From positions 30,876,001-30,940,000 of the forward strand of contig OZ024747.1 in assembly GCA_964016885.1 (NCBI GenBank): a stretch of 64,000 nucleotides of DNA. The letters run 5' to 3'. The notes under the pieces are model-generated. The model did not search any database. It had not been told where the DNA came from and worked only from the letters and a program-made list of their open reading frames with translations. Shown in pieces: positions 52,300 through 61,175 of this stretch (position 1 is the first letter of the stretch; each line of letters begins with the position of its first letter). The stretch comes from Eledone cirrhosa (lineage: Eukaryota). The position numbers were made by a program, and so were the translations under genes.

Positions 52300-53813
52300 G
52301 GAAAGGCAGACATCTTAATTATAAGCTTTTCTGGGTGGGTAATGATGATGGGTTAGGTGGGGTATGCATTTTACTGGCTGAGAGATGGATCGATAAACAA
52401 TAGAGATAGTTAGAGTTAGTAATAGAATAATTAAGCTTAGATTAGTTGTAGGCAGGAGACTGCTGACAATCATCTCTGCTTATGCTCCCCAGGCAGGCCT
52501 AGGTAAAGAAGAGAAAGACTGCTTTTATCAGCAACTTTTAGAAACAGCCACAATGACAGAGGACGGAGATATTGTAATGCTAGCAGGGGACTTCAATGGT
52601 CATGTTGGTCAGCTCCAGGATGGATACACTGTGGTACATGGTGGGCACGGTTATGGCTTAAGAAATGAAGAAGGTGTGAGACTTCTTGAATTTTGTGATG
52701 CTAGTGCACCAACCATTTGCAACACTAACTTCAAGAAACATACCAACCACCAAATAGCCTACAAATCAGGCGAGCACATAAACCAGATTGACTTCCTGCT
52801 AGTTAGGCAGCGAGACAGACAGATGGTTTCAAATACTAAGGCATACCCCGGGGAAGAATGTACCCCACAGCATAGGTTAGTCGTTAGTGATATCTCAGTA
52901 AGCAAAAGACAAAATGAGACATACAGGAAGGTGTGGAAAAGGAAGGTCTAGAAGCTAAAATATAAATTTAAGAAAGCTCTTCAAGAAGTGTATGACGAAA
53001 AAAAGACGATTTAGAATCATATGACACAGATGATAACTGGAATTTCTTACGTGACAACTGACTGCAGGCTACTGATGAAACTTGCGTCTGGAGCAGAGCC
53101 ACAAGTTTCAGACATAGAGTGATCTGGTGGTGGAACAGCATGGTAGATAGGGCCATTAGAGATAAAAGACTAGCATGGAATGCTTGTAAAAACGGTGGGA
53201 GTAGAGAAGGTTACACAACCACTAAGAGAGAAGCTAGATGTCAGGTGTACTTAGCAGCAGGGACGCTGAGAGTAGGAGATTTGCCAATGTTCTGTGACGG
53301 GAAGATCAGAGACGTGCGGTGTTCCGCATTGCAAGTCAGTGTGTCAGTGTAAATCAGTATGTTGTTGGAGATAAGTGTGTCTCAAATTATGCCGGTGTAC
53401 TTAGTGTCACTAATGATCAGAAAAAAAGAGGTCTACCCGACAGAGGGACCAGCTATTGAGATTGACGAATATAGGGTCCAAGAGGCAATTAAGGAACTGA
53501 AAAATGGTAAGGCCGCTGGACCGTCGGGGATAGTTGCTGAGATGCTGAAGGCATCAGGAGAAGTAAGCACTAAACTGGTTGCACGCATCATCAATCAGGC
53601 TATATATGGCGGTGTCATACCCAAAGACTGGAGCAGCAGTATTCTCATAAATTGCTACAAAGGTAAAGAGGATGCTCTGGAGAGGAGCAGTTACAGGGGC
53701 ATAAAACTGATGGATCAGGTTATGAAAGTGACAGAAAGAATATTAGCACTACTAATTAGAGAAAGGGACTAATTAGATGAGATGCAGTTTGGTTTTGTGC
53801 TTGGGAAAAGTAC
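52300..53813 (+). mobile_element. RTE-type LINE fragment (APE to early RT), degenerate
   Basis: YKLFWVG, AGDFNGHVG, QIDFLL, YRGIKLMDQ. Confidence 0.88.
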
Positions 53814-54288
53814 AGAGTGTGTGTTTATATGTGTTTCTTGATATTGTACTTAAGGGAAATATTAATAAATAAATATATACACAAGTACAATAACAACAAA
53901 CACATATAAACCCACACTAGTAGACAAAGATAGAATATAAAAACCAAAACACATACGAAAGAACTTTGATAGACTTTATATAGATATATATTTATATCTG
54001 CATTTTTGATAAACATTGATTGCCAAATGAATTAACTATGGAGTTATAAAAGATACAGAAGACAAAACCAACCAAACAGTGAGTGTGTTCTGTTATTATT
54101 TCTGGCAATATTATTACAACAAAATGACCTTCCCCAGGAATAACAATATTTGTTTCAACTCACGATTTCATATCAAAAACCTCGCAAAACAAATATATAT
54201 ATATATATACAAGTTATCCCGTGTTCAATCGGGGGTACCCACAGTAAGTAAGGTACTCAATACAAAGCAGAGTATAAATGTTTTATAC

Positions 54289-54393
54289 AGAAAAGCTTCT
54301 ACAGGACTAGAACTGTTTCATTCATGAGAAATCATCAGGAGCTTTCTGGATTTCTTACGAATGAAACAGTTCTAGTCCTGTAGAAGCTTTTCT
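54289..54393. repeat. Foldback palindrome with 45-bp arms
   Basis: agaaaagcttctacaggactagaactgtttcattc... and its reverse complement, two mismatches, 15-nt spacer. Confidence 0.85.
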
Positions 54394-54396
54394 ATA

Positions 54397-54459
<63 letters not shown>

Positions 54460-54696
54460 TATGCATGTATACGTACATACATATATGTATACAGACGTAC
54501 AGTAGCATGCACATATATATATATATATATACATATATACATACATATGCATACAGGTACACATACATATATGCACGTATCAGTTTAGCGGTGCTAACGT
54601 CGCTTTGTTCGTTTGTAAACAAACTGAACAGCCTGAATTTATGCCATACAGTGTTAAGGCAACCACGTCACCTTTTTGTTCAACACTGACACAGGA

Positions 54697-54739
54697 ACGA
54701 TGTACTAGTTTCAAGCTTGTTAGCTATCATCAGCACCGT
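54697..54739 (-). ncRNA. Minimal type I hammerhead ribozyme, unit 1
   Basis: Minus: acggtg-CTGATGA-tagct(aaca)agctt-GAAA-CTAG-TA-catcgt. Confidence 0.88.
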
Positions 54740-55164
54740 TTACCCATCTGCCAGATAGTTGAACGTTCGAAAGTATATACTTTCCTTATGAAAATTAACG
54801 GCTGAGCAGCCTAATTTGCATATTGAGTGAGTTAAATCGGTCAGGCATACCGAAAACGATAAATTGAAACAAAATGAAAACGAAATTTCATTTCTCACTC
54901 TTAGTATGGCACTTACTTAAATGTAAGTATGCATGTATACGTACATACATATATGTATACAGACGTACAGTAGCATGCACATATATATATATATATATAC
55001 ATATATACATACATATGCATACAGGTACACATACATATATGCACGTATCGGTTTAGCGGCGCTAACGTCGCTTTGTTCGTTTGTAAACAAACTGAACAGC
55101 CTGAATTTATGCCATACGGTGTTAAGGCAACCACGTCACCTTTTTGTTCAACACTGACACAGGA

Positions 55165-55207
55165 ACGATGTACTAGTTTCAAGCTTGTTAGCTATCATCA
55201 GCACCGT
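55165..55207 (-). ncRNA. Minimal type I hammerhead ribozyme, unit 2
   Basis: Identical to 54697-54739. Confidence 0.88.
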
Positions 55208-55632
55208 TTACCCATCTGCCAGATAGTTGAACGTTCGAAAGTATATACTTTCCTTATGAAAATTAACGGCTGAGCAGCCTAATTTGCATATTGAGTGAGT
55301 TAAATCGGTCAGGCATACCGAAAACGATAAATTGAAACAAAATGAAAACGAAATTTCATTTCTCACTCTTAGTATGGCACTTACTTAAATGTAAGTATGC
55401 ATGTATACGTACATACATATATGTATACAGACGTACAGTAGCATGCACATATATATATATATATATACATATATACATACATATGCATACAGGTACACAT
55501 ACATATATGCACGTATCAGTTTAGCGGCGCTAACGTCGCTTTGTTCGTTTGTAAACAAACTGAACAGCCTGAATTTATGCCATACGGTGTTAAGGCAACC
55601 ACGTCACCTTTTTGTTCAACACTGACACAGGA

Positions 55633-55675
55633 ACGATGTACTAGTTTCAAGCTTGTTAGCTATCATCAGCACCGT
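55633..55675 (-). ncRNA. Minimal type I hammerhead ribozyme, unit 3
   Basis: Identical to 54697-54739. Confidence 0.88.
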
Positions 55676-56282
55676 TTACCCATCTGCCAGATAGTTGAAC
55701 GTTCGAAAGTATATACTTTCCTTATGAAAATTAACGGCTGAGCAGCCTAATTTGCATATTGAGTGAGTTAAATCGGTCAGGCATACCGAAAACGATAAAT
55801 TGAAACAAAATGAAAACGAAATTTCATTTCTCACTCTTAGTATGGCACTTACTTAAATGTAAGTATGCATGTATACGTACATACATATATGTATACAGAC
55901 GTACAGTAGCATGCACATATATATATATATATATACATATATACATACATATGCATACAGGTACACATACATATATGCACGTATCAGTTTAGCGGCGCTA
56001 ACGTCGCTTTGTTCGTTTGTAAACAAACTGAACAGCATAAATTCAGGCTGTTCAGTTTGTTTACAAACGAACAAAGCGACGTTAGCGCCGCTAAACTGAT
56101 ACGTGCATATATGTATGTGTACCTGTATGCATATGTATGTATATATGTATATATATATATATATATGTGCATGCTACTGTACGTCTGTATACATATATGT
56201 ATGTACGTATACATGCATACTTACATTTAAGTAAGTGCCATACTAAGAGTGAGAAATGAAATTTCGTTTTCATTTTGTTTCA

Positions 56283-56327
<45 letters not shown>

Positions 56328-56340
56328 TGTATATATATAG

Positions 56341-58642
56341 TTAAAGAAAGGAGAGTAACATGGCTGACTGTACAACAAGGGCTTTATTCAAAGTGCTGAC
56401 AATTGTTTCGTTGATCTGGTGCCTCTAGAGTTCGCTAATCGCTTGATGCTGCGTCAATCGATCTCCAATACGTTGTTTACAACCAGGGACAACATCAACA
56501 AACCTGATAACACCAACACTACCTGCTCATACAGAAATAAAAAGCATAGGACTAAGCATAGATCTAGACAACTAGCACCAATAATAGGAGAACAGAGCAC
56601 TAATAATAGAAACCCCCAAAACTATAGAAGAACCAGAGAAAGAAAGTACCTATGGTTCAATCCGATTTTCAACTCATCTATAAGAACTACCTTCTATGTT
56701 TTTTAAACTAACAGATAAACACTTACCTACACTACATAGATACCATAAAATCTTCAATAGAAAAACTATAAACCTTTCATAGTCTACTGCAGCCAACATA
56801 GAATCGTACATACGTAAGATCAACCACAAAAATATCTCTAAGGAAATTACCCCACCAACGCGCACCATAGCACCAAATACAAAACACAAACATATAACAA
56901 CATCACAACCACAAATGCATCTGAACACACCACAGCAAAACATCAATAGGCCTAAATCGCAACCCACACAAAACAACTTTCAAAACCGCAATGAAGAAGT
57001 TGCCCAGAATAATACCTCAAACTGCAATTGTCACCTTCCAGATAAGTGCCCACTAAGGAATAGATGCCTGGATTCCAGCTTGGTGTACCTGTGTACTGTA
57101 AATTCAGGCAATTCCACTTGGCACTACATAGGATCCACAGCAGGGGAATTTAAAAAAAGGTGGTACGTCCACAGACACTCTCTGAGGAACTGTGCATTGG
57201 AGAATTCTACAACGCTCGCCAATAAAATCTGGCAGCTTAAGGACAAAATCCTTGAATACAATATTAGCTCGTCGAAATTAGCAGCAGCAAAAGCCTATAG
57301 CAATGGTATGTCCCACTGCGGGCTCTGTAACTTGGAATTGCTACATATCTTAAGGTACGATAAGATGCTGCTTAACAGCAAAATAGAAAGATCCATTTTC
57401 TACAGACATAAGATTGCTACTAGATTTACAAAATTTAAACCACCGTGATTCGAACCAGCATTCCCAAAATTAATAGAAAACCACTTAGACTTTAACATAT
57501 GAAAGCCGCACTCTCACACAGCTATTCCAGAACCATAAATTTCTGTAAACCTCTGCCAGCCTCCCTCCATCAATACCATCAAGATAGTATAGCAGGCACA
57601 ATGTCTACTACAAACATTTATCAATTATCTTGTCAGCCCATAAATTAATCTCGTCTTTAGTGTTGTTCATTCTTTCGGACCACACCATTGTATCTACATA
57701 TCTCATATTAGCACCCATGAACACATACAGATGAACTTAATTCTAAGTACATTATCTTATTACTTCCTAACTCTTATTTTCTTCTTATTATTATCATTTC
57801 AATGTACTCTATCCTTGATTTTATTCGCCATGTTCTCTATCCATTTACCATGCATGTTTCATTATTGATGTTATTGTTTTAATTATACGCTATTTTGTTA
57901 TTGATGTTACAAAACTTAAACCTCCATGATTCGAACCAGCAATCCCAAAATTTGGACTAAACCACCTAAATCTTAACATACTGAATCCACAATTTTCACT
58001 TAATACCAGCTACCATAGAACCATAAATCTCTATACACTCCCTCCATCAATCTCACTAGGATAATACAACAGGGGAAAATATCTACTACAACCATTTATC
58101 TGTGAAACCATAAATTAATCTCCGTTTTATTGTTGTTCATTTTTCAGCCCCACAGCTCATTTGTATCTAAATCTCTCATAATTGCACTTACAGTATAGAT
58201 CCTAAAATCTGACTCTAAGTACATTTTATTATTTTATTCCTTTATCTACTTTTCCTCATTCTCTTAATATTACTACTACTTTTAATGTACCCTATCTTAG
58301 ATTTCACATGTCACTTCATACATCTGTATCATCTCTGTTTATTTACCATGCGTGTTATATTATTGATGTTATTGTTCTAATTATTTGCTATCTAGCTATT
58401 TTGTTACTGATGTTATTGTTTTGGTTTAACACCACTCTTCTATAAAAGCCATGCCTTGCGTATTATTCTCATATCCACTTGCTCTGATGTATTGACTGGT
58501 TGTAAACAACGTATTGGAGATCGATTTACGCAGCATCAAGCGATTAGCGAACTCTAGACACACCAGATCAACGAAACAATTGTCAGCACTTTGAATAAAG
58601 CCCTTATTGAACAGCCAACCATGTAACTCTTCTTTCTTTAAA
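56341..58642 (+). mobile_element. 5'-truncated Penelope-like element with inverted pLTR segment
   Basis: YLWFNP; ORF 56915-57448 with CNCHLPDKCPL..CL..LVYLC...YIGSTAGEFKKRWYVH (GIY-YIG); 56341-56486 is the reverse complement of 58496-58641; 3' UTR duplicated with ~481-bp period. Confidence 0.9.
58480..58588 (+). ncRNA. Hammerhead motif with variant core (CTGATGT)
   Basis: tgct-CTGATGT-attgactggt...accagatcaac-GAAA-CAATTG-TC-agca. Confidence 0.65.
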
Positions 58643-58830
58643 TATTATTACTCCAAGTATAACCTGCATAGAAATTACCGCGAATTCGCTGCATCACTAT
58701 GGAAGCATCTTGTTGAATCAAACTAAGCTGCACGTTAAAATCATCCACAACACGGAGTGCTCAAACTGGACTACCTCTAAGTGGATCACCTATAATGATA
58801 ACTTGTTATCCCATATATATATATATATAT

Positions 58831-59212
58831 ATCATCATCATCATTTTACATCAGCTCTTCCCTGCTTGCAAGGTGGCACGGGTCTTATTCAGCACAGCAT
58901 CTGTCCACTTGTCACGGTCCTTCGTCATCTCCACTGTGAGCTTCAGCGATCTGAGGTCTGTTCTCACCACCTCCGCCCATGTTTTTTGTGATCTACCTCT
59001 ACCACGTCTTCCTTCAACTGGTATTTCCTGGCACTTCTTCACCCATCGGTCATCCTCCATGCGCATCACATGTCCATACCACCTCAGTCTCCTCTCTCGC
59101 ACACTACATTCTATCCCTCTCAGACACAATTTCTCTCTCAACACATTCATGCTGGGTCGTTCACGCACATTGACACTGCACATCCAACGGAGCATGCTTG
59201 CCTCATTTCTCT
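58831..59212 (-). mobile_element. RTE-type LINE subfamily B, 3' fragment
   Basis: Close match to 50200-50590. Confidence 0.9.
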
Positions 59213-59455
59213 CTCTCTCTATATATATATATATATGTATATATGTATAACGTACTTATGTGTGTATATTTATATACGTTTATATAATTATAGGTATACA
59301 CACATATATATATATTAATGTGTATTCGGTGTATTCGTTCGTATGTGTGCGGGTACATGTGTCATTTAGGTTTATGTATGTGTACGTGCATGTTTATGCA
59401 TGGCGGGTGTTTTCGCGTTTGCACGAGCATGTACGTATGTGGATGCGTGTATGTA

Positions 59456-60510
59456 TCTAAACTATAATAAAGGAAGGTCTGCGGGACTGCGTACAATTTT
59501 TTTTTATCCCGTTAGTAAATTAAGTTGGATTACTTTGAATAAATAATGAATGAATATTACATAATTTATCTACTAAATTTCGTAAACAAAAATAATTTAA
59601 AATTGACTTCTTTTCAAAATTGCACTTCCGATATATCGTTGCCACCACCACCACCACTTCAACTACCATATATATAGAAAGAGAGAGTGAGTGATGTCAA
59701 CACTTCCGGTGGCCATCACTTAAATAAACATACAAATGTTCTGTCACTAATTTTCTCCTAATGCAGTTTATATATAATATCGTCTTTTTTTAATGTATCA
59801 TGGATTACGTTACTGATTACATAAGACAGTGTAAGACAGTCTTCTTTCAATTTCTGTGTATATTGTCAATTACGATTTTATTTGATCATATCTACATGTA
59901 TATATACTTGCGAGTAATATCAATATACACACTACACATGCTAGCAGAAAACCACCCGAGGGTGGTTTTTCTGCTAGTATATCTAATTAAAATTACTTTT
60001 ATGATTTCAATAACCCCAGTCATTTTCGTTCTACAAATTCTTTTACATTATTCTTAACTCTGAAGCCGACAATCATTCGGTTTCCTAAATAAAATATTAG
60101 TCTATGACTCCATTTATACCATAAACCTGGTTCTGTCTTTGCGTGTAATTGTTCTCATCGTCCAACATAATGACGTATTATCTTCGTTTTTTCCGTTCAT
60201 TGACAGGGAACGTCTCCACGAAGCACCTAATAGAATATTAGTCTACGACTTCATTTATAACATAAACATGGTTTTGTCTTTGCGTGTAAATGTTTTCACC
60301 TCTCCAAATAATGACGTATTATCTTCACTATTTTCCGTTCATTGCCAGGGAATGTCTTCACGAACCAAAGTATCGTCTTCCTGTTTTCCTTTGGTTGCCA
60401 CGTTTTTCGAAATATTTACTTCTGCATTCACAGATCGATGTTTTTTAGTTTCAGAAGATCCCGTTAAGGGTGAAAGCAGCGATTCTTTGCTTAAACTTTA
60501 ATCTGTTATT
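59456..60510. mobile_element. Helitron-like non-autonomous element(s)
   Basis: a|TCTAAACTATAATAAAGG at 59456; hairpin ending CTAG|t at 59941-59977; 59990-60510 related to 13850-14220. Confidence 0.5.
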
Positions 60511-60598
60511 TTAATAAATATTTGCACTATATATTTGATATATATTTATCCTTATCGAACCCTCTTTGGATTTTAGTCTTCACATTTATTATTATTAC

Positions 60599-60669
<71 letters not shown>

Positions 60670-60674
<5 letters not shown>

Positions 60675-61113
60675 CGTTTCATTTTTTCCGTTTATCGTTT
60701 TCGGTGCACCCGGCCGATTAACCCACTCGATATGCAAATTGGACTATTCAGCCGTTAATATGCATAAGGAAAGTATATACTTTCGGACGTTAAATTATCT
60801 GGCAGGAAGGTATACGTTGCTGACGATAGCTAGCAAGCTTGAAACTAGTACAGCGTTCCTTTGTCAGTGTTGAACAAACGAGCAACGGTGGTTGCTAGAC
60901 ACTACGGCTTAATACGGGATGTTTGTTTACAAACACACCGAGCATTATAATAAATGTTTGGTGAATCCATACATACATATATATATGTGTGCATGTATGT
61001 ATATATACATACTACTGTACGTCTGTATACATATATGTATGTACGTATACATACTTATATTTAAGTAACAGCCGTACTAAGAGTGGGAAATGAAATTTCG
61101 TTTCATTTTTTCC

Positions 61114-61119
<6 letters not shown>
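60670..61119 (+). mobile_element. Diverged 424-bp monomer of the 468-bp family with 26-bp terminal redundancy
   Basis: aatttcgtttcattttttccgtttat at 60670 and 61094; homologous to the reverse complement of the 54457 unit; inside (TA)n. Confidence 0.85.
60814..60856 (+). ncRNA. Minimal type I hammerhead ribozyme
   Basis: acgttg-CTGACGA-tagct(agca)agctt-GAAA-CTAG-TA-cagcgt. Confidence 0.88.

Positions 61120-61175
<56 letters not shown>

Follow-up and report, generated by a model that had tools for sequence, protein, structure and literature searches.

How does a short, non-coding stretch of DNA come to lie within an (AT)n tract, carrying one complete repeat unit, the first bases of a second one and a hammerhead ribozyme motif? 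This question is raised by positions 60670 to 61119 of the window, by which is meant the whole stretch of 64,000 nucleotides analyzed here, from contig OZ024747.1 of Eledone cirrhosa (positions 30,876,001 to 30,940,000, forward strand). The features on which the argument depends are the following.

60599..60669, no strand assigned: (AT)n target, left side
60670..61119, plus strand: retrozyme copy of subfamily B, 1.06 units, single arm, 5′-truncated, with a tailed (T) 3′ end
60670..61093, plus strand: one full 424-bp unit, 37% GC
60801..60865, plus strand: type I hammerhead motif, with extended stem I, a 4-bp stem II that has U.U at its base, and minimal stem III
60817/60853, plus strand: stem I pair, U.G here, G.U or A-U in other subfamilies
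60820..60826, plus strand: catalytic core, first strand; N7 is C at 60824, a subfamily state
60833, plus strand: loop II A to G, private to this copy
60841..60850, plus strand: core second strand, stem III and cleavage triplet
61057..61119, plus strand: tail of ∼60 nt between the two 3′ end sites of the family (N site near 61057-61063, T site at 61119)
61094..61119, plus strand: 26-bp start of the next unit, element sequence found at tandem junctions
61120..61171, no strand assigned: (AT)n target, right side
54450..56288, no single strand: sister two-armed insertion of subfamily A (468-bp unit), 3.4 units on the minus strand with an N end and 0.54 unit on the plus strand with a T end
60042..60597, plus strand: 3′ UTR/pLTR and tail from a coding Penelope-like family that is abundant and has Hydra-clade motifs; it adjoins the copy and is a separate element

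The copy is a real, truncated member of an abundant non-coding repeat with a hammerhead motif. Homology to the 468-bp array at 54450-56288 extends along the entire copy, which diverges considerably from that array, as the initial annotation had proposed (76.5% identity over 498 BLAST columns, or 382/449 aligned bases). The reading as one 424-bp unit (60670-61093) followed by a 26-bp repeat of its start (61094-61119) is also correct, and the same unit position does end both this copy and the inverted arm at 56288, each before (AT)n. The copy does not stand alone as a diverged sister, however, being an ordinary member of subfamily B; five near-private differences occur in its first 285 bases, the loop II G among them. 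The fold of unit 60670-61093 is a chain of hairpins (z −4.9, a value to which the TA-rich part contributes). An open reading frame with reverse transcriptase and GIY-YIG domains was sought in the unit and none was found, which makes it unlike an autonomous Penelope-like element.

Is the motif a ribozyme? The hammerhead consensus is present, with the core CUGANGA / GAAA / UH, three helices and an open stem I, which consists of a 6-bp proximal part, separating the core from a 3-nt bulge, and then a distal stem. The cut is predicted between 60850 and 60851, a position that we take from the known hammerhead consensus. Stem III is minimal and contains a 6-nt palindrome that could pair with itself (−6.2 kcal/mol). 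Rfam gave no hammerhead here, either at the gathering threshold or among the 50 matches at E ≤ 10, and the evidence for a ribozyme is therefore the core motif together with the pairing counts; the miRNA matches in the same database were TA-repeat artefacts. At its base, stem II has U.U in place of the canonical G10.1-C11.1 pair. The same U.U, together with a 2-bp stem III, appears in the axolotl ribozyme HHR_Amex2 in the passages of PMC7229834, and those of PMC4209133 describe ribozymes with such a weak stem III as active in dimers. The isolated ribozyme is no more stable than its shuffles (z −0.41), and its active fold lies 4-6 kcal/mol above the minimum-energy fold.

The family to which the copy belongs is large. 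In the 3.0 Gb of genome searched, exact ribozyme patterns matched 13,319 and 26,951 times, far above chance, since their reversed controls matched 0 times; a motif from the flank, outside the ribozyme, matched 19,267 times. A DNA search, in which 40 of 1,519 candidates were scored, returned sequences that were all 97-100% identical. Clustering of 146 copies gave 7 groups with at least three members each and left 10 stragglers, and the units of the family measure 422-510 bp. They are short, non-coding, arranged head to tail and below 50% in GC, each with a type I hammerhead, and they are present in high copy number as dispersed monomers and multimers. On these features, the testable ones among those that define the group, the family classifies as a type I hammerhead non-LTR retrozyme. 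Two or more ribozymes, another retrozyme feature, are found in 19/68 arms of the family, while the copy at 60670 has only one; consequently, no unit-length RNA could be released from it by double cleavage. Four older subfamilies (L151, L198, L214 and L221) have a GUU cleavage triplet, and in three of them C.A replaces U.U at the base of stem II.

Another question is whether the ribozyme fold is under selection, as had been suggested from the changes between this copy and the 468-bp unit. All of the changes listed at that time are present: core N7 (60824), loop II (60833) and the stem I swap from G.U to U.G (60817/60853). The loop II change is private decay, with G in 0/36 close relatives; in run X1, made of contigs of unknown kind, the family base A accounts for 1,371,147 of a summed depth of 1,371,242 at this place. 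As for covariation, it is weak. The alignment held 67 of 94 distinct ribozyme stretches and the subfamily A unit of the window, leaving out 21 stretches found by a relaxed ribozyme pattern and 6 picked by their flanks, most of them with shifted or indel-bearing stems. Paired cells made up 94.5%, compared with 92.4% in shuffles and 31-47% in slid controls, and pairs changed on both sides numbered 2 (shuffles, 2.4; slid controls, 3-5). At 60817/60853 the states were U.G in 25 rows, G.U in 20, A-U in 13, U-A in 2 and other in 7, and U.G has a single origin on the tree; the swap is one event, a subfamily difference. One distal stem I pair is unpaired in 26/67 rows. The pattern is consistent with the fold and does not amount to statistical covariation, for which the genome offers too small a number of independent changes.

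Conservation tells a more favorable story for one part of the motif. In a sample chosen in part by ribozyme patterns, the majority rows of the 7 subfamilies vary at none of the columns of the core (0/11), stem II (0/8) or stem III (0/4), that is at 0/23, versus 47/167 in the flanks (core versus flank, p = 0.039; core plus inner stems, 3/35 columns, p = 0.017). Parsimony places 15 changes on these 23 columns where 41 are expected. Selection is thus supported for the core and stems II and III, and not for the ribozyme as a whole, where 15/65 columns vary (p = 0.51 versus flanks). The contrast between trunk and tips, with tip counts from 76 rows chosen otherwise, gave p = 0.13 for the core with stems II and III and p = 0.79 for the whole ribozyme, and some flank stretches are as constant as the core and inner stems.

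The copy itself is ordinary, and the useful result comes from the way in which the insertions of its family end. Across 149 loci, the 3′ ends adjoining (AT)n fall on two sites ∼60 nt apart, N (tail-less) in 110 cases and T (tailed) in 95, with 4 others. When two arms stand head to head, they nearly always combine one end of each kind: 49 pairs are N+T, 2 are N+N and 0 are T+T (p = 6 × 10−13), a count that leaves out 2 pairs with an unclassified end and 4 pairs, all N+T, with a gap, and that includes locus L079 twice; with L079 counted once, 48/50 independent pairs are N+T. In L079, one two-armed insertion is present twice, 2.6 kb apart, by local duplication or as an assembly repeat. The array at 54450-56288 of the window is one N+T pair. 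Either arm of a pair can be the longer one, and the inner starts lie ≤15 nt apart in 7/15 clear pairs (p = 4 × 10−4), several of them at palindromes.

The 5′ ends are different. They are scattered: only 4 of 45 clear ones fall in unit positions 1-26, and the 26-bp overlap of the copy is for this reason a product of chance truncation at the 5′ side, combined with a fixed start site at the 3′ side. The overlap as a target-site duplication is excluded, because the same stretch occurs at internal tandem junctions; the terminal repeat is indeed element sequence, as first read, and yet with 5′ ends so variable it is no feature of the family. A linear, ribozyme-cut monomer was also rejected as the template, given 3′ ends located 200-270 nt beyond the cut site and no accumulation of 5′ ends there, with 1 of the 45 within 5 nt of it. 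Among 68 arms in 40 loci chosen by ribozyme pattern, lengths range from 0.35 to 9.4 units, and such lengths require a template longer than the unit. The early suggestion of a circular or multimeric template therefore holds, and the arms with two or more ribozymes bear it out.

Which machinery could leave such ends? Truncation at the 5′ side, an inverted 5′ arm, a tail at one end and a (TA)n target form the insertion signature of Penelope-like elements, and the retrozyme has all of them. In the passages of PMC8557442, Penelope-like insertions are described with 5′ truncation, partial tandems, an inverted 5′ copy and a tail that is often confined to one end, and for Hydra elements the targets are given as (TA)n. 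In those of PMC11167929, a purified Penelope-like enzyme acts on AT-rich DNA, where it cuts and extends each of the two strands; it has two internal start sites on the RNA, which delimit the tail, and it is predicted to form a dimer. The N+T rule found here matches these two published start sites.

The same pairing is displayed by two coding Penelope-like families represented in the window. For the one at 60042-60597, with 18,439 exact motif matches, the arm pairs read by eye were 11 N+T, 1 N+N and 2 unclear, and for the one at 56337-58830 pairing was N+T in 4/4. Taken with the published start sites, these two families suggest mobilization in trans. We consider it highly probable that the copy is a 5′-truncated, single-ribozyme retrozyme insertion in (AT)n, likely produced in trans by a Penelope-like reverse transcriptase/endonuclease. 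The enzyme would nick the palindromic (AT)n target on both strands, and each nick would prime reverse transcription at one of the two internal start sites, on a template longer than one unit. The far ends of the two cDNAs would then be joined, in many cases where there are internal palindromes. For the arm at 60670, synthesis would have started at the tail site and stopped 26 nt beyond one full unit. With less certainty, the template could be a circle, cut by the ribozyme and ligated, which the enzyme would copy by rolling round it. Against mobilization in trans by such an enzyme stands the partner search: in contrast to the Xenopus cases of bioRxiv 10.64898/2026.07.22.740005, no homology was detectable between the retrozyme and the families at 56337-58830 and 60042-60597 or seven other fetched stretches, a small sample of the Penelope-like families of the genome, with one marginal score (40 versus a shuffled maximum of 33). 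The tail of ∼60 nt, longer than published ones, and the mosaic loci described below also count against it.

Circle or linear multimer? A circular template is plausible, and it is the choice towards which we lean. In 13/17 arrays, 3-13 variants that depart from the cluster majority are fixed in every unit, and 6 of these, in 4 arrays, are seen in no other locus; this points to a bottleneck of one unit. The same enzyme and the same end rule could instead operate on a linear, multimeric RNA, transcribed from a tandem array already in place and left uncut, without circles and with arrays that lengthen later by local duplication. We regard this as a serious contender, if one that we would not back. 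It gains from the weak stem III, which likely limits cleavage of the monomer (PMC4209133, as far as its passages go), and from the finding, in the passages of PMC11167929, that unprocessed RNA is the main substrate in vitro, so that no circle is required. It gains also from two mosaic loci with variants common to only some units: L066, where a private allele is in 6/7 units of one arm and 0/2 of the other, and L095, with 16 partly shared sites. These mosaics indicate that local amplification, conversion or mixed templates also act. The one-unit bottleneck weighs against the linear transcript, as does the conservation of the core, which implies that cleavage matters; so does the match within loci between same-arm and opposite-arm distances (0.056/0.054 in L095 and 0.004/0.006 in L066).

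A more specific form of the circular reading can be offered, tentatively and with some doubt: a dimer of the enzyme would take the circular retrozyme RNA without any shared sequence, recognize the tail by its structure and fire each start site once, one per cut strand, rolling round the circle.

Could the element instead be the detached pLTR of an unsampled autonomous Penelope-like family, many of the copies being truncated insertions of that element? This is improbable, even if Xenopus retrozymes match pLTRs in the parts of bioRxiv 10.64898/2026.07.22.740005 consulted and Penelope-like fragments occur in 15/148 retrozyme-search loci. The units stand head to tail with no open reading frame between them, and the neighboring coding families have ribozyme motifs and tails of their own, which are different. 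Adjacency to the family at 60042-60597 was not counted as evidence, because both elements target (AT)n.

The neighbors deserve a description of their own. The family at 60042-60597 has a 645-aa open frame with the RW(R), DKT and CxCX5C motifs described for Hydra; a full-length unit of 3,259 bp is found at L261:2112-4046, where this frame hits a stop before the last endonuclease residues. Its pLTR contains a hammerhead-like motif (60448-60500, plus strand) with the core CAGAAGA, not CUGANGA, fixed in the 18,439 exact matches, which would make it a natural variant of the core or, in spite of the success of the family, a dead ribozyme. The older coding insertion at 56337-58830, beside the array, has a GIY-YIG-like frame (56783-57448), an inverted tail-less arm and a pLTR hammerhead-like motif with ∼80 extra bases in stem-loop II and a core that is mostly CUGAUGU. 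Pfam and PDB gave no name for either Penelope-like protein, and the Atlas returned reverse transcriptase/GIY-YIG look-alikes, a lead. Elsewhere in the window, three more hammerhead-core-like motifs (51857, 52251 and 54338, minus strand) are probably pLTR remnants, a short inverted repeat at 54280-54400 abuts the array, and broken LINE-like endonuclease/reverse transcriptase fragments at 52397-53772 and 58851-59255 have a weak Exo_endo_phos_2 match only.

Spread at the DNA level, by satellite amplification, hairpin-driven palindromes and recombination between (AT)n tracts, with TA-rich ends as deletion products, is very unlikely and largely refuted, despite a unit rich in palindromes and TA runs, 7/15 junctions near fold-back geometry and some mosaic arrays, since deletion into (AT)n would not give N+T in 49/51 pairs, arms of which either can be longer are not fold-back copies of each other, and conservation of the ribozyme core needs an RNA stage.

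In L1 twin priming, cDNA is primed from the two nicks in the target and a 5′ inversion results, with arms that come from different parts of one RNA. Retrozyme arms, unlike those of L1, overlap in unit coordinates and have both outer ends at fixed sites. A literature search, limited to main texts and for the most part to journals outside subscription, found no paper joining retrozymes with twin priming or head-to-head arms; by paper title it found no such ribozyme family in octopus or other cephalopods.

How does the family compare with known systems? The metazoan non-LTR retrozymes of coral, mussel and axolotl, in the passages of PMC7229834, are alike in their type I hammerhead, short non-coding tandem units of low GC and thousands of copies. 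Their units are ∼170-400 nt, versus 422-510 bp here, and circles have been shown for them, whereas for the present family they are a prediction. Head-to-head arms and the N/T end rule, found here, are absent from the same passages, and "inverted" has 0 occurrences in that paper. The likeness to the Penelope-like elements that encode an endonuclease (EN+), namely the Hydra clade (PMC8557442) and Poseidon PAc (PMC11167929), extends, within the passages of those papers, to 5′ truncation, partial tandems, the inverted 5′ arm, the one-end tail, (TA)n targets, two internal start sites and a hammerhead in the repeat. Unlike them, the retrozyme has no open reading frame and has an extended stem I of the canonical type rather than the minimal pLTR ribozyme; its tail of ∼60 nt exceeds the 30-40 nt published for Penelope-like elements in the same passages, and the tails of the coding families here are longer still. 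Xenopus retrozymes, in the parts of bioRxiv 10.64898/2026.07.22.740005 consulted, are also non-autonomous, co-occur with Penelope-like elements and are present as monomers, dimers and multimers. Their link to these elements consists of co-occurrence and pLTR homology, whereas here it is the signature of the insertion ends, pLTR homology being not found in the stretches compared.

Two open questions meet at this locus: how do animal retrozymes enter genomes, and why do Penelope-like insertions have a tail at one end only? The end-pairing rule likely marks copying by the enzyme of a Penelope-like retrotransposon. If the reading of a dimer on a circle were true, the rule of one arm with a tail and one without would be the trace left in vivo by target-primed reverse transcription acting on two strands in concert, and retrozymes could by this means be assigned to Penelope-like machinery independently of sequence. 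With thousands of young insertions, a near-strict end rule and a non-coding template of 424 nt, the family lets both questions be put to a direct test, in vitro and through a census of the genome.
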